Origin: an uncultured Candidatus Saccharibacteria bacterium
GTDB taxonomy: Bacteria > Patescibacteriota > Doudnabacteria > UBA920
Assembly: GCA_964597895.1 (NCBI GenBank)
Contig: CAZQZS010000001.1
Location: 81,008 to 145,007, forward strand
Reading direction: 5' to 3'
Length of the DNA: 64,000 nucleotides
The translations under genes and the position numbers were made by a program. This document shows, piece after piece, positions 3 through 50,405 of the stretch. Position 1 is the first letter of the stretch. Each line of letters opens with the position of its first letter. The notes under the pieces were generated by a model. That model made no database searches and was not told the origin of the DNA. It saw nothing but the letters and a program-made list of their open reading frames with translations.

Positions 3-431
3 GCTGTGATGGTCTCCACTTTTGCCAATCGCGGCCTAAAGGTAACGCCTTTTATTCCTAAAAAGAATCCTGATGGCACAATGCCGGAGCCAAAAGTCAC
101 CAAAGTGGACTTGCCGGAAGATGTGTTGGATGGCGCAATTCCAGGAATGAAGGGCGCTGCCGAATACGGTACAGCCCACCGGGGAGTGGATGCTTCCAAA
201 GGCATTGCTGGTAAAACCGGCACTTGCCAAGGAACTGGACTATTTGCTTCGGTTGCTCCCATCAGCGATCCAAAGTACACCGTTGTGGTCATCACGCGGG
301 GTGCAAGTGGACGCGGAAGAATAGCCGCAGCAATTGCTGGAAAAATCTATCAAAGCATCATGCCGGAGCTTGAGATCCGGAAGCCTTCAGTTGAGGAGGT
401 AGACACGCCGAGATTAGGTATTTTACAGTAA
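3..431 (+). CDS. penicillin-binding protein (transpeptidase) C-terminal fragment, 5' end outside window
   Basis: ORF runs off the window start; KTG(T) motif (GKTGTCQ) typical of PBP transpeptidase domain. Confidence 0.6.
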   Translation, partial: AVMVSTFANRGLKVTPFIPKKNPDGTMPEPKVTKVDLPEDVLDGAIPGMKGAAEYGTAHRGVDASKGIAGKTGTCQGTGLFASVAPISDPKYTVVVITRGASGRGRIAAAIAGKIYQSIMPELEIRKPSVEEVDTPRLGILQ

Positions 432-484
432 CTTTTCATTTCTTCAATTCTTGTCAGCTTACGGGGAGCTGGCAGGTGGCGAAG

Positions 485-524: not shown

Positions 525-553
525 TTGACTTATGGCCTGATTTAGCGTATAAT
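525..553 (+). promoter_or_regulatory. sigma70-like promoter of rpmF leader
   Basis: TTGACT - 17 nt - TATAAT read directly. Confidence 0.55.
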
Positions 554-600
554 TATCACATTGACTTTAAGATTAAAACAAATTTTTGCTTGGGCCGACA

Positions 601-672
601 GGTGAAGGCGCGACGAGTGTAGCGAGGAGCGCCGTAGCGAACCCCAAGGTTAAGCGAAAATTTGAGAGGAGA
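601..672 (+). ncRNA. conserved structured motif copy A (candidate leader RNA element of rpmF)
   Basis: About 80% identical to 4743-4814; helix ggcGc...gCgcc vs ggcTc...gAgcc covaries; shared core gagtgtagcga...ggttaagc.aaatttg. Confidence 0.3.
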
Positions 673-738
673 AATTGACGAAGACAGCTAGCGGACAAGT
701 TTGCTTGCCTGCGAGAGGTCGGAGACAATTTTGACGAC

Positions 739-903
739 ATGGGAGTTCCAAAGAAGCATAAAACCCGTAGTGGCCGCGACCAACGTCGCAGTCATCACGC
801 CTTAACCGCCAGCCAACTGGCCAAGTGTAAGAATTGCGGCAGCCCAACTCAGCCTCATCACGCTTGTCCAAACTGTGGTTATTACAAAGGACGCAAGGCT
901 TAA
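739..903 (+). CDS. rpmF: 50S ribosomal protein L32
   Basis: 54-aa ORF MGVPKKHKTRSGRDQRRSHHALTA...CxxC...CxxC zinc-ribbon, below 60-aa cut-off of ORF track. Confidence 0.85.
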   Translation: MGVPKKHKTRSGRDQRRSHHALTASQLAKCKNCGSPTQPHHACPNCGYYKGRKA

Positions 904-1097
904 GTTTGAACCAGCTATTACGAAAAGAAACAGCGAATCGCTGTTTCTTTTCTTTGCCCGATTGCTTTGTCAGAAGCCTGCGTTCGGCTTCGCCGTAACT
1001 TTCATTACGCCTCCGCCGAGCCTCGGCTTCTTGCGCGCACTCGGGCAAAATAGCTAGGTTCTAGCAGTTTGTGGATATTTAAGTTAAACTTAACTAT

Positions 1098-1523
1098 ATG
1101 GCCAACCGACACTTACTTAGAACCATAGCCCTTCAATCTTTGTTTGAGTGGGACTTTCATAACCGCCAAGGGGATTTGGCGGATATTTTGGACAGAGTAT
1201 CCAAAGAGTTTTCTCCCGACCAAGAAGGGTTGGAGTTTGCCAATGAGCTGCTCATGGGCGTAGTTAATAATATAGACGAGCTTGATGCGGTGATTGTAAA
1301 GCATGCTCCAGAATGGCCAATCGAACAGATTACTATCATTGACCGTAATGTTTTGCGGTTGGGGATTTATGAGCTTCTTCACCTTAAAGAAACTCCGGCT
1401 AAGGTAGCAATTAACGAAGCTGTAGAAATGGGCAAGCGTTTCGGCGGGGAATCATCGGGCAAGTTTGTTAATGGTGTACTCGGCGCTTTGTTTAAAGAAT
1501 TGCCCGAGGCTGAACAATCCTAA
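1098..1523 (+). CDS. nusB: transcription antitermination factor NusB
   Basis: 141 aa, NusB-like sequence ([13 protein letters not shown]...). Confidence 0.85.
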
Positions 1524-1535
1524 AACCATAAGTTT

Positions 1536-1566
1536 GCACCTCGCGATTGCGAGGTGTTTTTTTATC
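1536..1566 (+). terminator. rho-independent terminator after nusB
   Basis: cacctcgc-gatt-gcgaggtg hairpin followed by T7. Confidence 0.6.
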
Positions 1567-1642
1567 CCAGTTTGAGTTTTTATTGACTGTGTTTTGAACA
1601 GCGCCATGCATAATTACAACAAGATAATCAGAAAGGAGTATT

Positions 1643-3676
1643 ATGCAACAAAAAGTATTGCTTTGGTTTACAGCATTGGCTGTAGCTATTGGCAGCATGG
1701 CTGGTTTGGCTGTACAGACTGCCCGGGCCGAAGTGGCGGCTCAGCCGATTGTTATTTCGGCAGTTCAAGTCTCCGGAGGGGACGGCTTTGTTAATCAGGA
1801 TTTTATAGAGCTATATAATCCGAATCCGTACCCAATGGATTTAAACGGACATCGATTGGTAAAGCGTTCCGCAAATGGCACTGCGGATAGCTCAATCAAA
1901 TCATTTTCGGCAGAAACAATCATTCCGGCTTATAGTTTTTATCTGTGGGCCAATTCTTCCTGGTTGGATATTGCTGTAGTGCCTGATGCTACAACTTCGG
2001 CTACACTAGCCAACGATAATGGCGTGGCTTTGCGCCAGGGTGCATTAGACACTGGGACGATCATTGATAGCCTAGCTTGGGGAGAAACTAGCAATGGTTT
2101 TGTAACTACAGGTTTATCTAACCCCTCGGGAGGAGAATCTGTAGTCAGGCAAGATTTGTTTGAGAATCTTGGCTATTTTCTGGCTAGCAGCAGCCCGCGA
2201 AACAGCAGTGTTCAAGTGTTGCCAGATCAAATCCCTGAGCTAACCGATAACGCTCAGTGTGGTGTAGAAAATCATTCTGTCCAAGTAGCGCCTGGTCAAT
2301 CCTTGCTGCTGAACCTTAACTTGGTAAATTTAGGAAACACGGTTTGGAGCAGCTCAAATTATTTTGTCCAGCAAAATTATACTTCTAGTGAGCTACGAAT
2401 AAGTTTGGGCAAAGATGTAAATCCTCTAGAACAGATTACGCTTGCTTTAACTCTATCCGCACCCGTACAGATCGGAGAGTACTTTTACCAATGGCAGATG
2501 AATTCTGGAGTACAGCTGTTTGGGGAGGTGTGCTCAATGACCGTGACGGTGCAGGTGGAGGTGCCGGATGATCAACCAGGTAGCCAGGCCAAGACAGTTC
2601 AGATCACCGAATTTCTGCCTAATCCAATCGGGGAGGATAATGGTTTTGAGGTGGTGGAGTTACATAATTTTGGCAATACTGTAATCAACTTAGAAAATTG
2701 GGTTTTAGATGACGTTTTAACAGCACCTTTAAGTTCAAATGCATTTGTCCTGGGAAATCAGACATTGGGAGCAGGGGAATATGTTGCCATAACGATTCCT
2801 TCGGGCAAATTTGGCTTGAATAATAGCGGGGGAGATGGTTTAGGCTTATTTGACCAAGAAGGCGAATTAATCAGCAAAGTTACTTATACGAGCACGGCCC
2901 CAGAAGGTAAGTCGTATAGCTTGATTGGCGGTTCTTGGTACTGGTCAGCGCCAAGCCTGGGATCGGTTAATCTAGAATTGCCGTCAGATAATCCAGACAT
3001 TCCCGATGATTCTGATGACGAAGCACCACCTGTTGATCCTGAGCCTGATGATGAGTCAGTGAATTATGAACTGATAATTTCGGAAATCTACCCAGCGCCC
3101 AAACCAGCGCAAAAGGAGTTTGTGGAGATTTATAACCCCAGCGTTTCATTGGTAAATCTGTCGGCCTACAAACTAGTTATCGGATCTAGGGCACAAGTTT
3201 TGCCTGATGTAGATTTGGGGAGCGGGGAATATTTTATACTAACCGGCCAAGATTTAAAGCTTCCTTTGGCAGATTCAGGGAAATTAATTCAACTGCAATC
3301 TCTTTCGGGCGAGATTATAGATGAAGTTGAGTATCCAAAGGCTCTTAAGGGGAGCAGCTATGCTTGGGCTGAGGATAGTTATGTTTGGACTTTAACGCCA
3401 ACTCCTGGACAAGCTAATCAACTGACTGTGTCTGGTGAGGGTCGCTCAAGCAAGGCTAAGCCTGCCAAAAAAACTGTGCCAGCAAAAGTTGCCAAGCAGC
3501 CCATAGCCGGAGTAAGCGAGACTAATCAGGACAAATTTCCTCAGGAAATTGCTCCAGCTTTAGCTCCTCCAGCCCAACAACCCAAGGCTAACATTATCAA
3601 TGCTATAGCCATTGGTTTTGCAAGCTTAAGCGCTGGTGTTTATGCGCTGTATAAATTCGGAATAGCTGGGCTTTAG
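1643..3676 (+). CDS. secreted/membrane-anchored protein with three lamin-tail-like domains
   Basis: Signal peptide; three repeats of the V.ISE..YNP....EF+ELYN...L.GW pattern (aa about 45, 320, 470); C-terminal TM helix; strong RBS aaaggag. Confidence 0.6.
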   Translation: MQQKVLLWFTALAVAIGSMAGLAVQTARAEVAAQPIVISAVQVSGGDGFVNQDFIELYNPNPYPMDLNGHRLVKRSANGTADSSIKSFSAETIIPAYSFYLWANSSWLDIAVVPDATTSATLANDNGVALRQGALDTGTIIDSLAWGETSNGFVTTGLSNPSGGESVVRQDLFENLGYFLASSSPRNSSVQVLPDQIPELTDNAQCGVENHSVQVAPGQSLLLNLNLVNLGNTVWSSSNYFVQQNYTSSELRISLGKDVNPLEQITLALTLSAPVQIGEYFYQWQMNSGVQLFGEVCSMTVTVQVEVPDDQPGSQAKTVQITEFLPNPIGEDNGFEVVELHNFGNTVINLENWVLDDVLTAPLSSNAFVLGNQTLGAGEYVAITIPSGKFGLNNSGGDGLGLFDQEGELISKVTYTSTAPEGKSYSLIGGSWYWSAPSLGSVNLELPSDNPDIPDDSDDEAPPVDPEPDDESVNYELIISEIYPAPKPAQKEFVEIYNPSVSLVNLSAYKLVIGSRAQVLPDVDLGSGEYFILTGQDLKLPLADSGKLIQLQSLSGEIIDEVEYPKALKGSSYAWAEDSYVWTLTPTPGQANQLTVSGEGRSSKAKPAKKTVPAKVAKQPIAGVSETNQDKFPQEIAPALAPPAQQPKANIINAIAIGFASLSAGVYALYKFGIAGL

Positions 3677-3852
3677 TCAAACAATTTTGCGTGTTAAAAT
3701 GTTCATATCTATGGAATATCTCAAAAAAATCTGGAAGTGGATAGAAATCGGTATAGGGTTTGTAATTAATAGCCTCGGGAATCTCATTCTGCCTGGTTAG
3801 AAAATTTATTTTAGGTATGTTATAATTCAGAAAATCAGTAATTTGATGCTTT

Positions 3853-4164
3853 ATGAGTTTGAACAAATCTGATTTAATTGAGGTTTTGGCAGCCCGTTTG
3901 TCTATCACTTATACAGAAGCCGAACGCATGCTTAATGCCTTTATTAATTTAATCTACGAATCGCTCAAAAACGGCGAGAAAGTTAACATTAGCGGCTTTG
4001 GCCAGTTTAGCGTTTCTCATAGAGCGCCACGCATTGGTGTTAACCCGCGTAATCCTACCCAAAAGATAGAGATTCCAGAATTGAACACCCCAAAGTTTAA
4101 AGCCGGAGAGGCTTTTAAAGAAGCTGTGAAGTTAAGAAAAAATTCTAGCCATATACAAGAATAA
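3853..4164 (+). CDS. hup: HU/IHF family DNA-binding protein
   Basis: 103 aa with HU signature (GFGQFSVSHRAPRIGVNPRNP). Confidence 0.85.
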   Translation: MSLNKSDLIEVLAARLSITYTEAERMLNAFINLIYESLKNGEKVNISGFGQFSVSHRAPRIGVNPRNPTQKIEIPELNTPKFKAGEAFKEAVKLRKNSSHIQE

Positions 4165-4165
4165 A

Positions 4166-4192
4166 TAAAACCGCCGTAAGGCGGTTTTATTC
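4166..4192 (+). terminator. rho-independent terminator after hup
   Basis: aaaaccgcc-gtaa-ggcggtttt hairpin plus T-run. Confidence 0.6.
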
Positions 4193-4230
4193 TAATTAAG
4201 AAAAAAGCACCGAACGAGATGTCTTTTCTT

Positions 4231-4631
4231 TGGAGCGGGTAAGGGGAATTACGCGTCGGCTTTCTGCTGAAAGCCTCCTTGCCCGGGGTTGCGGAAACCT
4301 GCCACTGGCAGCTTTCCGATCGTTCGCTTTCGGTTTTCTCTGCAGAGAAAACCTCAGCTCACTTCAACCCGTTCGATTCCTCTATAATCATTCCAAAGTA
4401 AAAGCCCCAGCTATCGCTGAGGCATTTACTTTGGAGCGGCTAAGGGGAATGTCGCGTCGGCTTTCTACTGAAAGCCTCCTTGCCCGGGGTTGCGGAAACC
4501 TGCCACTGGCAGCTTTCCGATCGTTCGCTTTCGGTTTTCTCTGCAGAGAAAACCTCAGCTCACTTCAACCCGTTCGATTCCGCTAACTCACCAAAATAAA
4601 AAAGTACCAGGCAAGCTGATACTTTTTTATT
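4231..4631. repeat. 200/201-bp tandem repeat (2 copies) ending in the tRNA-Gly gene; each copy begins with a 19-nt duplicate of the tRNA-Gly 3' end
   Basis: tggagcgggtaaggggaat at 4231 and 4432 (1 mismatch) equals the 3' end of tRNA-Gly at 4632; the rest of each unit is near-identical between copies. Confidence 0.75.
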
Positions 4632-4706
4632 TGGAGCGGGTAAGGGGAATCGAACCCCTATCATCAGTTTGGAAAACTGAGATAATAACCATTATACGAT
4701 ACCCGC
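4632..4706 (-). tRNA. tRNA-Gly (anticodon UCC)
   Basis: Manual cloverleaf: acceptor GCGGGTA/TACCCGC, anticodon stem TCAGT/ACTGA, loop TTTCCAA, T-arm AGGGG-TTCGATT-CCCCT, discriminator U, CCA encoded; close to E. coli glyT. Confidence 0.85.
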
Positions 4707-4742
4707 AATCTAATGGTGATCAAATTTCTGCTTGGGGCAAGT

Positions 4743-4814
4743 TGGAGCAGGCTCACGGAGTGTAGCGACGGGAGCCGTCGCGACAACGCAGGTTAAGCAG
4801 AAATTTGTAAGGCA
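4743..4814 (+). ncRNA. conserved structured motif copy B
   Basis: Paralogue of 601-672 with compensatory change in the closing helix. Confidence 0.3.
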
Positions 4815-4883
4815 CAATAATGCGGAAGGTGGAGTGGGTCCGCCAGGGGCGGGCACACGCAACCTGCAGCATTAATTGGGCCG

Positions 4884-4960
4884 TGGTCGGGAACCCGGGA
4901 CTCGAACCCGGAACCTCTCGGTCCCAAACCGAGTGCTCTAGCCAATTGAGCCAGTTCCCG
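4884..4960 (-). tRNA. tRNA-Pro (anticodon UGG)
   Basis: Manual cloverleaf: acceptor CGGGAAC/GTTCCCG, anticodon stem CTCGG/CCGAG, loop TTTGGGA, T-arm CCGGG-TTCGAGT-CCCGG, CCA encoded. Confidence 0.85.
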
Positions 4961-5203
4961 AAGCATGATTGCCTCAAATCTACATATGTTACCGAGCCAC
5001 AGCCATCTAAGGCTAGAGGCACTCGGTGAGTGCACTATCTCTTGGTCTGCCTTGGGCAGAACCCAATTGAGCCAGTTCCCGAAGCATGATTGCCTCAAAT
5101 CTACATATGTTACCGAGCCACAGCCATCTAAGGCTAGAGGCACTCGGTGAGTGCACTATCTCTTGGTCTGCCTTGGGCAGAACCCAATTGAGCCAGTTCC
5201 CGT
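4944..5203. repeat. 121-bp tandem repeat, about 2.1 copies, first copy overlapping the 5' 17 nt of tRNA-Pro
   Basis: aattgagccagttcccgaagc... recurs at 4944, 5065, 5186 with identical units. Confidence 0.8.
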
Positions 5204-5263
5204 CGCACATATACATCAAATACAAGTTATTCTACTAATTTTGTCGTAAAAAATCAAGCTGGA

Positions 5264-5292: not shown

Positions 5293-5352
5293 GATATAAC
5301 TGATTTTAGGTTCGGCAATTGGCCCGTATTTTGTTCAAAGGAGGAAACTAAC

Positions 5353-5886
5353 ATGTTAGGTGGAAGGCAGATCTTTGGTTTGGCGGTTTTTGTTTTTGTC
5401 GTCGTATCGTGGGTCGCATGGTACGATTGGTCGAAGTTTTATAGTTCGGCTTGTGAGGAGTGGGGATCGTCTGCTATTGACTGCAACAGCGAATCCTATC
5501 GTCCTGCCGATAAGGTCAAGCACTTGCACGAGTATGTGCGCAATCCTGGTAATGCCAAAAGTTTTCAGCAGTACCAACAGCTGGATACAAATAGAGTTAA
5601 GTACTCCGCCGCTGTCCTCAAGACAGACAATGGGGTATATTACTTGAACGCTTTTCCAGATTCCCTTCAGGTTTTGTTTGTAAAGAATGGAATGCAAGAT
5701 CCGGAATTTGGCTGGCAGGATTTTGATGCCGACGGCACCATTGATTTTGCCACCAGGAGGTTGGTCGATAAGTCACCTCCAGTAGTCTACGATTCCGAGA
5801 TGGGCTTAAACCGTGACCTTAGACCCATATTCCAAGCTGCTTACTCTATGCACGTAGAGACCATCACTACCAGGCTTGGCCTGTAG
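5353..5886 (+). CDS. hypothetical membrane-anchored protein
   Basis: 177-aa ORF with strong RBS, N-terminal TM helix; no recognisable family. Confidence 0.45.
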   Translation: MLGGRQIFGLAVFVFVVVSWVAWYDWSKFYSSACEEWGSSAIDCNSESYRPADKVKHLHEYVRNPGNAKSFQQYQQLDTNRVKYSAAVLKTDNGVYYLNAFPDSLQVLFVKNGMQDPEFGWQDFDADGTIDFATRRLVDKSPPVVYDSEMGLNRDLRPIFQAAYSMHVETITTRLGL

Positions 5887-9315: not shown

Positions 9316-10149
9316 TTATTCATACTCTTCGCTGTATTGATCAGCGAGGATAGATATTTTAGCGTCAAGAATTTTCTGTAAGGCCTCATCATAGTCTGCT
9401 CCATCCATTTCGTCTATAGCTTGTTCAAGTAATAGCTCTTCTTCCTGGGTTAACTCTGTATCTTTACTGAGTTCTACAACATCATTTATTTCGGATTCAA
9501 CTAACTGTTTTTGCTCAGTTTCGTTCGCACTTTCGATAAACATATCCAGCTCATTTTCTATCTCTATATCTATGGTTTGTTCGGCTAAGGCGATATCTTG
9601 GCTTTCTGTTCCTGCTTCGGAAAATAATTCATCCTGAGCATCTAATATGGCTGCCACTTCCACTAGCTGATCAATTTGTAAAGAAGGGGATTGTTCCGAT
9701 TCATTTAATACTACCTCCAGAGCATAATCTTCTATATTTTCGGAAATATAGCTCAGAGTTTCTGAATCCAGCTGCTCTGGTGAAGAGTTTTGCAATTCAT
9801 TTAGCCTTTCGTGAAGTCTTTCAGTAGCAAATTCGTTTTGCTCCTGCCACGGGGAGGTGAGCAGTTCTTCTGCAGGCTCAATTATCATAATTTCTACTCC
9901 ATAAAGCCAACCGCCGGGTCGGCTATTTTGAGCTGCATATGTGAGCGGGGTGGCAATTAATATTAGCAAGAGTGCTACGCTCACAGGCATAGCCACTTTG
10001 CTCTGCAGAAGCTGATGAATTAAGTGACTAATCCCGCTTGGCTGGGCTTTATCGCTCCCAATCACAGCAGTCAGCATTTGTTCCTTTTCCTTGGCCGACA
10101 GCCTAGTTTGATTGGCTTGTTCTGTAAATTTTTGTAATGGGTCAGTCAT
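9316..10149 (-). CDS. putative anti-sigma factor (single TM, acidic extracytoplasmic domain)
   Basis: Overlaps ECF sigma gene by 8 nt (translational coupling); short N-terminal cytoplasmic region, one TM helix, acidic C-terminal domain. Confidence 0.5.
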   Translation of the reverse strand: MTDPLQKFTEQANQTRLSAKEKEQMLTAVIGSDKAQPSGISHLIHQLLQSKVAMPVSVALLLILIATPLTYAAQNSRPGGWLYGVEIMIIEPAEELLTSPWQEQNEFATERLHERLNELQNSSPEQLDSETLSYISENIEDYALEVVLNESEQSPSLQIDQLVEVAAILDAQDELFSEAGTESQDIALAEQTIDIEIENELDMFIESANETEQKQLVESEINDVVELSKDTELTQEEELLLEQAIDEMDGADYDEALQKILDAKISILADQYSEEYE

Positions 10150-10627: not shown

Positions 10628-11010
10628 CCCGTCTCCTTTATGAAAATAAAAATCCGCTTATTTCCGGATGATTTTTATTGTCAGATTTTCCGGTTTTCTG
10701 TGTCTTTAATTACAGAGGCGGACTTCCGCTTACATAAATCAAGACGTGTTTTGGCTGGGTGTGTTACTTCGCGCTCATTATAACTCACTAATGTATTTCT
10801 GTTAAGTTTGCCGTCCGCCTCTATCTAAATCTTGTTGACTTGTCAGGGGCATACGGATCACCGGACATAGCTGGTGATTGGTCGTGCGTATGTGTTCATT
10901 ACTTTGTCTGCACAAGCAATAAGCAAGAGAGTATAAAGTTTTTGCGATAACTCTAGATAGTCGCTAATTCATTAATATTCTGTTGAGTAATTAATTATGT
11001 TTTCTATAAT

Positions 11011-11040
11011 TATTGATTGTCGCAATTGAGCAATCAATTA
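11011..11040. promoter_or_regulatory. palindromic operator-like site upstream of paralogue B
   Basis: TTATTGATTGTCGCAATTGAGCAATCAATT; inverted repeat ttgattg/caatcaa; TATAAT immediately upstream (11004-11009). Confidence 0.4.
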
Positions 11041-11095
11041 TGAAGACCCTCTAACTTTTGGAAGAGGGTCGCAGTTATAGAAAACGGAGTATCTC

Positions 11096-13342
11096 ATGAA
11101 AACTTTTTTAAGTAAAATAGTAACTGGTTTTTCTGTTGTTGCTTTATCTGCAACAATGTTGGTTATGCCGGCTGCTGTAACCAAGGCTGCTACTGCTGGT
11201 GGAGTTTACTCTACCCCAGACGGTACCGTATGGTTCGTCACTAAGGATATGCAGAAGCGTCCTTTCACTAGCGCAGGTGCTTTCTTGAGCTATGGTTTCT
11301 TAAACTTCTCTCAAGTTACCCCAGCTGACGCTAGCGTAACCGCTTTGCCTACTGGTAGCTTCATCGCTCCAGCTGACGGCAAAATCTTCTGTGCTACCGA
11401 AACCAAAGGTACTGACGTAGCCGGAGAATGTGCTCTAATCACTGGAAGCAAGAAAGCTTCCTTTACCTCTGCTGCTGTATTCGCAGCACAAGGCCACAGT
11501 TTTGCCCGCGCAATGTATGGTGACTCTTCCTTCTTGGAAAAGACCTCTAACATCAGCGACGGCAGTGCTGCTCACCTTCCAGGTGTGTTAGTAAACAACG
11601 GCGGCACCGTTCAAATGGTTGTCTCCGGTGGTCTATGGGGTATCCCATCTATTGATGTATTCAATTCTTGGGGCTACAACTTTGCTGACGTAGTACCTGC
11701 AAACTCTGCAGACTTAGTTAAAGAACAAATTGGTGTGATTCCTGCCCGCCAAGCTGGTGAATTAGTGCCGACTGGCCTTACTGGCGGTCCAACTCCTGGT
11801 CCAAAGGATTGTAATTTGGATGGCTCTGCCGGCTCAATTGACGTGGAATCTTCATCCATTTACAGCAATGAAGAAGTGGGCGAAGGGCAAGAAGAAGTTC
11901 CTGTAATGGCCTTCCGTGTAGAAGCTGATAACGATTCCGACATTGAAATCCGCTCTATCCGTGTTGCTTTGGAACACACTGGTTCTGGATCTCAGGACTT
12001 AGACGATTACGCAACCGAAATCACTGTTTGGCAAGGCGATGATATGGTAGGTTCTGCAGATGTTGATGAATTCACCGAGAATAATGACATCTTTACCAAG
12101 ACCATTAACTTGGATTGTGCAGTGATTGATGCAGACGAAACTGAGGAATTCTCGGTAGCTGTTTCTGCATTGCGCAACATTGACTCCAATGATTTGGATG
12201 AAGTTTGGAACATTGACGTGACCAGCATCCGCTTTATGGATGGTGACGGCGTGACCACTACTGAATCCCAGTCTGGCCTGGATCAAGACTTTACTTTTGT
12301 GGATTTTGTCACTGCTGCTGACGTTGAACTTCGCGTTGCTCTTAATGACGACGAGGAAGACATCAATGACGCGCATAACATCTTGGTAGATGAAGACACC
12401 ACCACCAAGAATGAGCCAGTATTGGCATTCACCTTGGAAGCTCGTGGTGATTCTGACATCACTGTGGATGAAATCCCAGTGTTGTTGACCACTGATGACG
12501 ATGATATGGATTCTGTAGCAACTACTGCTCATCTTTATCAGGGTACGACAAAGTTGAGTACAGAAACAATTACTAGCAGCAATACTGACCATGACAATGA
12601 TGCTCAAACTGCTCTGGTTATCTTCGATGATCTCGACTTTGACATCGACGCAGGCGATAAGGAAGAGTTCCAGGTTCGCTTGGATTTTGCCCGCCGCACT
12701 GTAAGCACTTATGCTGAAGGTACTACCGTCCGTGCAGAAATCACTAGCGCCTTGGCTGATTCTGACTTGGAAGCCGAAGACGAAGAAGGTAATGATTTGA
12801 GCTCTAGTGAAATCAGTGGTTCTGCTCTAGGTGAAGACCACTCCTTGTTTACCCAAGGTATTCAGGTAGAAGTAACTTCTAAGCAAACCAATGTTAACAC
12901 TAACGACGGAGCAGACAACGATTCTGTGGAGTTCGTTTGGGAAGTTACCATTACCAACATTGGTGATGAAGATGTATTCATCAATGCCGACAATGCCGAT
13001 GTAGTATCTAGTGATACTGCAGCAGATGTTGACACTTTGTACGCATCTGAGGACGGTGCAGCAACTCTTGGTAGTTTCAGTGGTACAATCACTGATGAAA
13101 ATGCAACCGAGTCTACCGCTAGTGCCGGCAACTTTAATGGTGAAGTGTTCTACAAGATCGCTGCTGGCGGTTCGGAAGACTTTACCATCACCGTGACTGC
13201 GACTAACAGCGCAGGTGCAGGTCAGGTTCGTGGTTGGTTGACTGCCATCGAATGGACAACCAACATTAATGGTGGGGTAGCTGAGTCTTATACCGCTAAT
13301 CTGGTTCAAGATTCACGCACACCATTCAAGCTGGTAAACTAA
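11096..13342 (+). CDS. secreted acidic surface protein, paralogue B
   Basis: 748 aa; DNA 11171-11650 is 100% identical to 7042-7521, then the sequences diverge. Confidence 0.7.
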   Translation: MKTFLSKIVTGFSVVALSATMLVMPAAVTKAATAGGVYSTPDGTVWFVTKDMQKRPFTSAGAFLSYGFLNFSQVTPADASVTALPTGSFIAPADGKIFCATETKGTDVAGECALITGSKKASFTSAAVFAAQGHSFARAMYGDSSFLEKTSNISDGSAAHLPGVLVNNGGTVQMVVSGGLWGIPSIDVFNSWGYNFADVVPANSADLVKEQIGVIPARQAGELVPTGLTGGPTPGPKDCNLDGSAGSIDVESSSIYSNEEVGEGQEEVPVMAFRVEADNDSDIEIRSIRVALEHTGSGSQDLDDYATEITVWQGDDMVGSADVDEFTENNDIFTKTINLDCAVIDADETEEFSVAVSALRNIDSNDLDEVWNIDVTSIRFMDGDGVTTTESQSGLDQDFTFVDFVTAADVELRVALNDDEEDINDAHNILVDEDTTTKNEPVLAFTLEARGDSDITVDEIPVLLTTDDDDMDSVATTAHLYQGTTKLSTETITSSNTDHDNDAQTALVIFDDLDFDIDAGDKEEFQVRLDFARRTVSTYAEGTTVRAEITSALADSDLEAEDEEGNDLSSSEISGSALGEDHSLFTQGIQVEVTSKQTNVNTNDGADNDSVEFVWEVTITNIGDEDVFINADNADVVSSDTAADVDTLYASEDGAATLGSFSGTITDENATESTASAGNFNGEVFYKIAAGGSEDFTITVTATNSAGAGQVRGWLTAIEWTTNINGGVAESYTANLVQDSRTPFKLVN

Positions 13343-49761: not shown

Positions 49762-49987
49762 AAAACTCCTTTGTTACATAATTTTGTAACGATTGGGTAA
49801 TGGTAATTGTAACAATCATATGGTAGCTCCGGCTGGGATTGCACCAGCGACCGCGTCGTATCGGGCTTCGCCCGTGCGACGCCAACTTTCGTTGGGTCGC
49901 AACTCAGCTTCGCCGATACTCCTTTAACTTTCTTACTTAACCTCGCTTTACTCGGCCCAAGTAAGAAAGTTGTCCATGAACTCTTGC

Positions 49988-50064: not shown

Positions 50065-50090
50065 ATCAGCAAGAGTTCATTAATTACTCG

Positions 50091-50125
50091 AAGCCCCTGC
50101 TCTATCCAACTGAGCTTCGGAGCCG
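50091..50125 (-). pseudogene. tRNA-Arg 5'-half fragment (acceptor, D-arm, start of anticodon stem)
   Basis: GGCTCCGAAGCTCAGTTGGATAGAGCAGGGGCTTC is about 90% identical to tRNA-Arg(UCU) nucleotides 1-35. Confidence 0.5.
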
Positions 50126-50167
50126 TGATGCTTATATTATAACAAAAACCGCTGTTTGCGGTTTTCG

Positions 50168-50244
50168 TGGTGCACCCGACAGGATTCGAACCTATGACCT
50201 CTCGCTCCGCAAGCGAACGCTCTATCCAGCTGAGCTACGGGTGC
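50168..50244 (-). tRNA. tRNA-Arg (anticodon GCG as read)
   Basis: Manual cloverleaf: acceptor GCACCCG/CGGGTGC, anticodon stem TTCGC/GCGAG, loop TTGCGGA, T-arm ATAGG-TTCGAAT-CCTGT, CCA encoded. Confidence 0.7.
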
Positions 50245-50405
50245 ACGTCGTAGTTTTCTTCGGGTTTACGAAATCGGCTAAAGCCAATTTCTACCGCCCT
50301 CCGTAAACTACTCCTGTCACATTCACGATTAACTTCGCTCTGCTCGGCCCAAGTGTGAATGTGGTCTAGAGTAACAACTAAAGAATTATAATGAAAAATA
50401 GAGAA

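Follow-up and report, generated by a model that had tools for sequence, protein, structure and literature searches.

A two-domain structured RNA leader that abuts gene starts in one small group of Patescibacteria

What kind of element recurs both in the leader of a ribosomal protein gene and in a spacer between tRNA genes? The question is raised by a 64,000-nucleotide (nt) stretch of DNA, here called the window, from an uncultured Candidatus Saccharibacteria bacterium (placed by GTDB in UBA920 of the Doudnabacteria, Patescibacteriota; assembly GCA_964597895.1, contig CAZQZS010000001.1, positions 81,008 to 145,007), in which two look-alike stretches lie at 601–672, upstream of rpmF, and at 4743–4814. 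An earlier note, made from the sequence alone, described them as about 80% identical and suggested an independent small RNA or protein-binding element. Both stretches are present where it placed them, and they share the words GAGTGTAGCGA (at 615 and 4758 only) and AGGTTAAGCNRAAATTTG (at 647 and 4790 only; 0.04 expected by chance); the identity figure is slightly generous, at 73% gapped over these coordinates and 79% in a MAFFT alignment that includes the flanks. The similarity begins earlier, at 579 (copy A) and 4721 (copy B), with a 15-bp closing stem in which CAAATTT(T/C)TGCTTGG pairs with TTAAGC..AAATTTG at 650–664 and 4793–4807, and it runs on past the noted motif to 738 and 4883 through a second hairpin domain. 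The motif is domain 1 (D1) of a larger two-domain RNA and not the whole unit. This RNA is structured and modular, lies on the sense strand and abuts gene starts; it is conserved, has been gained and lost between relatives, and can replace a native ribosome-binding site.

A scan of species-representative genomes yielded four homologs with identical spacing and 11 chance matches in other phyla. Models of the two domains (R1 for D1, R2 for domain 2, D2) then found two short-form copies on the minus strand of the window, C and D, and further copies came from loci fetched by way of neighbouring proteins. Rather than the original pair alone, the family comprises 14 copies in 7 assemblies (Table 1). 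Eleven copies are in the sense orientation and end 0–2 nt before a start codon or the first nucleotide (+1) of a tRNA, two precede a 5'-truncated tRNA, and copy B is the only exception; with 11 of 14 copies lying on the sense strand directly before a gene, the idea of an independent small RNA is not borne out. The genes served, namely tRNAs, S12, S7, L32 and RpoC, all belong to the expression machinery. The tail meets the gene as GACGAC/AUG (rpmF), GGACGAA/AUG (rpsL), GGACGAU/AUG (rpsG) or GAC/GUG (rpoC) in mRNAs, and as GACGU/G or GACGA/G (+1) in tRNAs, with UACGA/G(-1) for tRNA-His. At the rpsG junction (locus L093, rpsG region 809–1192) the gene caller had put the start at 902, but the gene truly begins with the ATG at 809 (MPRRARSF...), right behind the tail. 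Two copies, L018 (rpoB-rpoC) and L093-2 (rpsL-rpsG), are intercistronic and have no promoter.

The unit, 119–193 nt long across copies, is ordered as D1 hairpin, single-stranded A.AGGAG box, D2 hairpin, GACG tail and gene, and all leaders fold unaided into the two-hairpin shape. D1 comes in two forms, of 92 and 46 nt, with a common, invariant internal loop, CUUGGGCC.A/AGGUUAAG. The long form consists of helix P1, followed by P2 and P3, and has an 11-nt loop, near-invariant as GAGUGUARCGA, which sits on a covarying closing pair. In copy A, P1 is formed by 579–593 with 650–664 (15 bp, including G.U pairs) and the 11-nt loop is GAGUGUAGCGA at 615–625; in copy B, P1 is formed by 4721–4735 with 4793–4807 and the same loop lies at 4758–4768. 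The short form, found in 5 of the 14 copies, keeps P1, the internal loop, the linker, D2 and the tail, and has a tiny hairpin in place of P2, P3 and the 11-nt loop. The closing helix of D2 starts directly behind AGGAG, and this domain measures, in copies A, C and D, exactly 6 bp + 48 nt + 6 bp. AGGAG is invariant in 13 of 14 copies and the tail, of the form (N)GACG(N)(N), keeps GACG in 12, the exceptions being the tRNA-His copy (UACG) and copy B (GGCCG). The predicted probability of being unpaired is 0.49–0.99 for the linker against 0.27–0.38 for the rest of the leader (0.60 against 0.37 in copy A).

The limits of the unit are sharp. The paralogs L018 and L022 are identical from 1 nt 5' of P1 to GACG and unrelated outside, and because their identity stops at the unit ends, the unit does not include a promoter. 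Promoter regions upstream of the copies are not homologous to each other. The rpmF promoter reported in the earlier note is a sound prediction, as is the rpmF start at 739, and this promoter is also conserved in L004, a relative without the element. Two further features were considered and dropped: a leader peptide, as the UUG-started open reading frame (ORF) in D2 of copy A is not kept in other copies, and a pseudoknot between the apical loop UAGCG and CGCUA in D2, which is present in A and L018 and missing in L011.

That copies A and B encode a structured RNA, as the earlier note held, is upheld by their plus-strand folds (Table 1) and by covariation. The helix on which the note relied, GGCGC/GCGCC in A and GGCTC/GAGCC in B, is P3, and it varies further in other copies (GGCAC/GTGCC, GGGCT/AGCCC). 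RNAalifold finds the same fold unguided, with 30 pairs (10 double-changed) for D1 from six sequences and 15 pairs (9 double-changed) for D2. In the first, MAFFT-only alignment, 95.2% of the cells are paired, as against 25–43% for slid partners, and none of 500 shuffles reaches the score. With 13 distinct sequences in model-fitted alignments, pairing extends to 94.9% of cells in D1 (both partners changed in 18 of 30 pairs; slid controls 25–41%) and to 90.2% in D2 (10 of 15; 21–40%), and again 0 of 500 shuffles reach the pairing score. At the top of P1, two G.U pairs never vary and thereby fix the functional strand; for an element on the minus strand these pairs would turn into A.C mismatches, and the minus-strand folds are weaker.

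Orthologous copies point to selection as well. Between the window and locus L092, identity is 71% in the dus gene and 62–69% in spacers, as compared to 84% in leader C, about 93% in leader D and 100% in the tRNAs; between L011 and L093 it is 92% in the rpsL gene and 97% in the rpsL leader. Being more conserved than the neighbouring genes, the leaders are under purifying selection.

At the same time, presence and absence differ among close relatives at four loci: rpmF, rpsL, the rpsL-rpsG spacer and tRNA-Arg(gcg). Ten syntenic rpmF loci (L001–L010; L32 67–87% identical) have no copy, which together with copies before other genes agrees with the earlier note that this is not an rpmF-specific leader. 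Empty sites are likewise seen at tRNA-Arg(gcg) in L091, at rpsL in L094–L100 and in the rpsL-rpsG spacer of L011. The empty rpsL sites read ...CGAAAGGTCAAAGAA/GTG, and in the filled sites the element replaces that native Shine-Dalgarno (SD) sequence and spacer.

The family is narrowly distributed, so far in one small group of Patescibacteria, and all carriers belong to one clade. One metagenome-assembled genome, CAZBOT01, holds both L020 and a 91%-identical Dus. Conservation across distant genomes, or horizontal transfer, was considered on the strength of 30–44% protein identity and dropped, as those matches are probably paralogs and the carriers form one clade. A metagenome scan and a loose viral scan gave no true members, only chance matches (the viral ones were not examined individually) and an unrelated hairpin repeat of marine metagenomes. 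This repeat, CTAACCGGCCATTTATAC-AGAGTGTAGCGAAGCGAAACGGC-GTATAAATGGTCGGGTTAAGC in L070, L073, L080, L084, L085 and L086, contains the same two words by chance and looks like an integron attC site or a repetitive extragenic palindromic (REP) sequence. Two carrier contigs break at or beside the element or its tRNA: L088 (CAZBOT010000093) ends 24 nt after dus, and L022 starts inside the tRNA; such repeats probably fragment assemblies, so that copies may be under-counted.

Copy B is the one copy that does not fit the common layout. As the earlier note observed, it has no plus-strand gene downstream and lies between tRNA-Gly and tRNA-Pro, both on the minus strand; its 3' end abuts the CCA end of the opposite-strand tRNA-Pro, and no plus-strand promoter could be recognized for it. 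It keeps both folds, with compensatory changes relative to A. Because the AGGAG and GACG boxes are lost and the copy is antisense in a tRNA spacer, we regard it as an orphan, possibly an inverted one, although it may have a separate role. In L004 the corresponding spacer holds a 103-aa GIY-YIG nuclease ORF instead (10952–11263), so this spacer is a variable insertion spot.

Structured 5' leaders are normally private to one operon, whereas here one module is shared by tRNA, ribosomal-protein and rpoC genes and seems to bring the ribosome-binding site along. The explanation that we put forward, at roughly even confidence, is that the element is a lineage-specific, two-domain, cis-acting and portable 5' leader in which, on mRNAs, the AGGAG box and D2 make up a split ribosome-binding site. 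AGGAG is the SD sequence of other genes in the window (e.g., 5338–5355), and in A, L011, L020, L093-1, L093-2 and L018 it lies 64–89 nt upstream of the AUG or GUG, with no other SD sequence near the start. D2, whose closing helix covaries, ends 4–7 nt before the start codon, as is expected of split-site spacing. AGGAG would then act as the SD sequence of the mRNA copies, folding of D2 would place it about 4–7 unpaired nt from the start codon, and the two hairpins would hold both in a fixed single-stranded frame that is independent of the upstream sequence. In the tRNA copies the whole module would form a 5' leader that is cut at the tail/tRNA junction, presumably by RNase P. D1, both forms of which share the invariant internal loop, probably serves all copies as an accessory domain for binding or stabilisation.

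A precedent may be found in phage T4, where the SD sequence of genes 38 and 25 is described as lying far upstream and an intervening hairpin as cutting the effective spacing to 5–11 nt (PMC3014915). By analogy, the element would present AGGAG, a hairpin of 60–90 nt and a tail of 4–7 nt before AUG or GUG. Unlike in T4, the intervening structure is much larger, fixed in size and conserved as a family over unrelated genes, and its effect on translation is predicted; it is linked to another hairpin domain farther upstream and is found before tRNA genes as well.

Several points weigh against a split ribosome-binding site. AGGAG is equally conserved in tRNA leaders, which have no need of an SD sequence, and may thus have another function, either instead or in addition. 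The proposal gives no role to D1 or its invariant loop; D1 may bind a protein. Predicted tail accessibility is inconsistent (0.11–0.86), copies D and B precede no intact sense gene, and the family is seen in only about five populations of one clade. The larger alignments were fitted to models, which favours structure somewhat, and transcription, retention and cleavage of the leader are predictions.

Patchy occurrence at four loci among close relatives is also what would be expected of selfish mobile DNA that spreads and is merely tolerated before genes, whether akin to miniature inverted-repeat or palindrome-associated transposable elements (MITEs, PATEs) or moved by a recombinase. Genomes hold several copies, stem sequence types are shared before unrelated genes, contig L088 ends just at the expected site of an element, copy B runs opposite to the tRNA genes on either side of it, and there are tRNA fragments beside copy D and the X units. 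Like MITEs and REP-type repeats, the element is short, multi-copy, hairpin-forming, intergenic and patchy; unlike them, it is fixed in orientation and position relative to gene starts, consists of two asymmetric domains without terminal inverted repeats spanning it (the inverted repeat P1 closes D1 only, and the unit continues for 75–100 nt 3' of P1) and evolves by compensatory change. No target-site duplication is visible between filled and empty sites, no transposase is adjacent in any locus, and random insertion would not give sense copies that share the orientation of the gene and end 0–2 nt from its start; with the compensatory changes, the strand-specific G.U pairs and orthologous copies that are more conserved than genes, we consider mobile DNA unlikely. 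Similar upstream regions before non-homologous genes, within and between genomes, have been described as putative mobile promoters (Matus-Garcia et al. 2012, PMC3488235), but the unit described here contains no promoter, similarity between the flanks is lost 1 nt 5' of P1, and two copies lie between cistrons. An operator for a shared trans-acting factor (an RNA-binding or ribosomal protein, or a small ligand), with D1 as the sensor, would suit the coherent set of genes, and the invariant internal loop and near-invariant 11-nt loop are typical of a specific binding site. Like the leaders of ribosomal protein operons (L10, L20, S15, rpsL), the element is a structured, covarying, sense-strand 5' leader beside a ribosome-binding site; those leaders, however, are each tied to one operon, whose own protein they bind, and their conservation spans orders, whereas this one is shared by rpmF, rpsL, rpsG, rpoC and tRNAs and comes and goes between relatives. 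Moreover, 5 of 14 copies lack the supposed sensor (P2, P3 and the loop), tRNA genes are unusual targets for a riboswitch or ribosomal protein operator, close relatives do without the element, no terminator-like site is seen within the leaders, and minimum free energy folds leave AGGAG unpaired (alternative folds were not searched exhaustively). We consider an operator unlikely as the explanation, plausible though a regulator or ligand site on D1 is.

Three further readings turn on the 3' boundary. The leader itself could be the product, a stable small RNA or part of a ribonucleoprotein after cleavage at the tail (for example, an AGGAG decoy for the 30S subunit), with copy B as its free-standing gene. 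Before tRNAs, RNase P would free the whole structured 120–190-nt leader and give it a defined 3' end, AGGAG is kept there too, and both folds persist in copy B although no sense gene follows it. Yet no plus-strand promoter can be recognised for B, the single-stranded parts that are best conserved, AGGAG and GACG, are gone from it, and mRNA copies have no known cleavage mechanism, which leaves this reading quite doubtful. We give similarly little credence to an RNA processing cassette in which the hairpins and the AGGAG and GACG boxes direct a cut at the 3' boundary, by the RNA itself or by a dedicated nuclease. If it were true, mature tRNA 5' ends and leaderless mRNAs would arise from one shared signal, by a new route to 5'-end maturation, and the same boundary chemistry would let the element spread to new gene starts, including the inside of a tRNA gene (copy D). 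Very unlikely in our estimate is a self-processing RNA, resembling a ribozyme or intron, that cuts its own 3' boundary and may spread by the reverse reaction. It would account for the sharp ends (L018/L022), for a 3' end that always abuts the first functional nucleotide and for the position of copy D inside an interrupted tRNA-Arg gene, an arrangement conserved in L092, and the richness of Patescibacteria in introns (PMC13011429) counts for it. No Rfam ribozyme or intron model matches, however, even at E<=5–10; the short form, at about 120 nt, is far below the size of a group I intron; the halves around D, when joined, do not make up an anticodon stem; and no conserved junction resembling a catalytic core is evident.

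Searches of Rfam 15, which the earlier note had proposed with ribosomal-protein leaders in mind, gave no family matching the copies: there was none for A and B at the gathering score or E<=10, none for L011, L018, L020 and L022, and none at E<=5 for the C/D region and L093. Literature searches found no description of the element. Group I introns, including the tRNA introns of Patescibacteria, do not describe it (no intron model match, units of 119–193 nt, halves around D that do not rejoin), nor does an integron attC site: GTTAAGC fits the GTTRRRY core, but it is partnered on the 5' side by GCTTGGG, a cassette array is missing and the surrounding genes have housekeeping functions. The element is a new RNA family and an unusual variant of structured leader. 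To our knowledge, the non-coding RNAs of this phylum are almost unexplored, and a well-supported family is added to them whichever reading holds. Should AGGAG and D2 indeed form a split ribosome-binding site, the element would be a naturally occurring, portable cassette for translation initiation, in organisms whose genomes are tiny and whose regulators are few, and a ready-made part for expression design.

Table 1. Features of the window and copies of the element in relatives
Feature	Position	Strand	Basis or context
Sigma-70-type promoter TTGACT-17-TATAAT, rpmF transcript	525–553	+	11/12 match; outside the repeated unit
Copy A, domain 1, full form (the noted motif)	579–664	+	before rpmF; R1 102 bits; -33.5 kcal/mol, z -3.8
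Copy A, linker AGAGGAG (canonical Shine-Dalgarno of the organism)	665–671	+	multi-copy alignment
Copy A, domain 2, 60-nt hairpin closed by AAAUUG/CAAUUU	672–731	+	R2 74 bits
Copy A, tail UGACGAC	732–738	+	rpmF ATG at 739 immediately after
rpmF (ribosomal protein L32), gene behind copy A	739–903	+	Pfam PF01783 homologs
tRNA-Gly	4632–4706	-	
Copy B, domain 1, full form	4721–4807	+	tRNA-Gly/tRNA-Pro spacer; R1 108 bits; -40.2 kcal/mol, z -5.5
Copy B, linker, domain 2 and tail	4808–4883	+	R2 48 bits; fold; linker UAAGGCA (degenerate), domain 2 at 4815–4878 closed by CAAUAAUGC/GCAUUAAUUG, tail GGCCG (degenerate)
tRNA-Pro	4884–4960	-	
Copy C, short form	50245–50363	-	before tRNA-Arg(gcg), +1 at 50244; R1 37.7 bits, R2 74 bits; D1 50363–50318, linker ACAGGAG 50317–50311, D2 50310–50251, tail CGACGU 50250–50245; TATAAT at 50391–50386; orthologs in L090 and L092
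Copy D, short form	49853–49971	-	after tRNA-Arg(tct), 5' of a truncated tRNA piece (5' end missing) at 49852–49821; R1 38.5 bits, R2 60.7 bits; D1 49971–49926, linker AAAGGAG, D2 49918–49859, tail CGACGC; ortholog in L092
L011, L020, L093-1			before rpsL
L093-2			between rpsL and the true rpsG start
L018			between rpoB and rpoC
L022			before a tRNA cut off by the contig end
L090, L092-i			before tRNA-Arg(gcg)
L092-iii			before tRNA-His
L092-ii			ortholog of copy D

The loci examined also contain tRNA-associated rearrangements that standard annotation misses. The tRNA-Arg gene around copy D (window 50124–49821, minus strand; L092 11252–11557) is interrupted in the anticodon loop, and the corresponding gene of L091 (12251–12327) is intact. 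The insert is a 14-bp stem (ATGAACTCTTGCTG/CAGCAAGAGTTCAT) around a second, complete tRNA-Arg(tct), followed by copy D, after which the outer tRNA-Arg resumes at the variable loop; this layout is kept between the window and L092, and the outer anticodon is TCG in the former and TCT in the latter. Restoration of a tRNA by joining the halves around copy D was considered and rejected, as the 3' strand of the anticodon stem is missing.

Beside tRNA-Gly, the minus strand of the window carries two tandem 201-nt units (4224–4585; 96% identical), each with a structured RNA of about 150 nt that is fused to the last 19 nt of tRNA-Gly and a terminator. This RNA ends in CAAGGAG-GCUUUC AGUA GAAAGC-CGACGCGAC, a minimal form of the AGGAG-hairpin-GACG syntax, and its 5' GCGG pairs with a 3' CCGC to leave UCCA, an acceptor-stem-like end. 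The same pattern is seen in L091 (11498–11694), where a complete tRNA-Arg(gcg) is followed by an insert of about 190 nt, a duplicated 3' fragment of this tRNA (GAATCCTGTCGGGTGCACCA) and a terminator. Three tandem 121-nt units at 4942–5221 of the window each contain the first ~20 nt of tRNA-Pro plus its upstream leader; only the last runs into a complete tRNA-Pro, and the array could be a real duplication or an assembly artefact. Around tRNA-Arg(gcg), 50067–50223 (minus strand) gives a sub-threshold Rfam match to YrlA, a Y RNA-like family (28.5 bits, the gathering score being 69; E 0.0006). The match covers this tRNA and the outer tRNA half, and the tRNA-like parts probably account for it.

A separate, conserved structured region (AATTCATTTGAAGCCCCTAACTGAAGGAATTACTGACACATTG ... 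GACTGACTCTTGGGTCGGTTTTT) lies upstream of rpsL in L020 (about 330–480, minus strand), L094 (about 420–545) and L098 (about 9655–9790). Placed behind a TTGACT/TATAAT promoter and with a terminator-like hairpin at its end, it may act as an attenuator or be a small RNA; loci with and without the two-hairpin element both have it.

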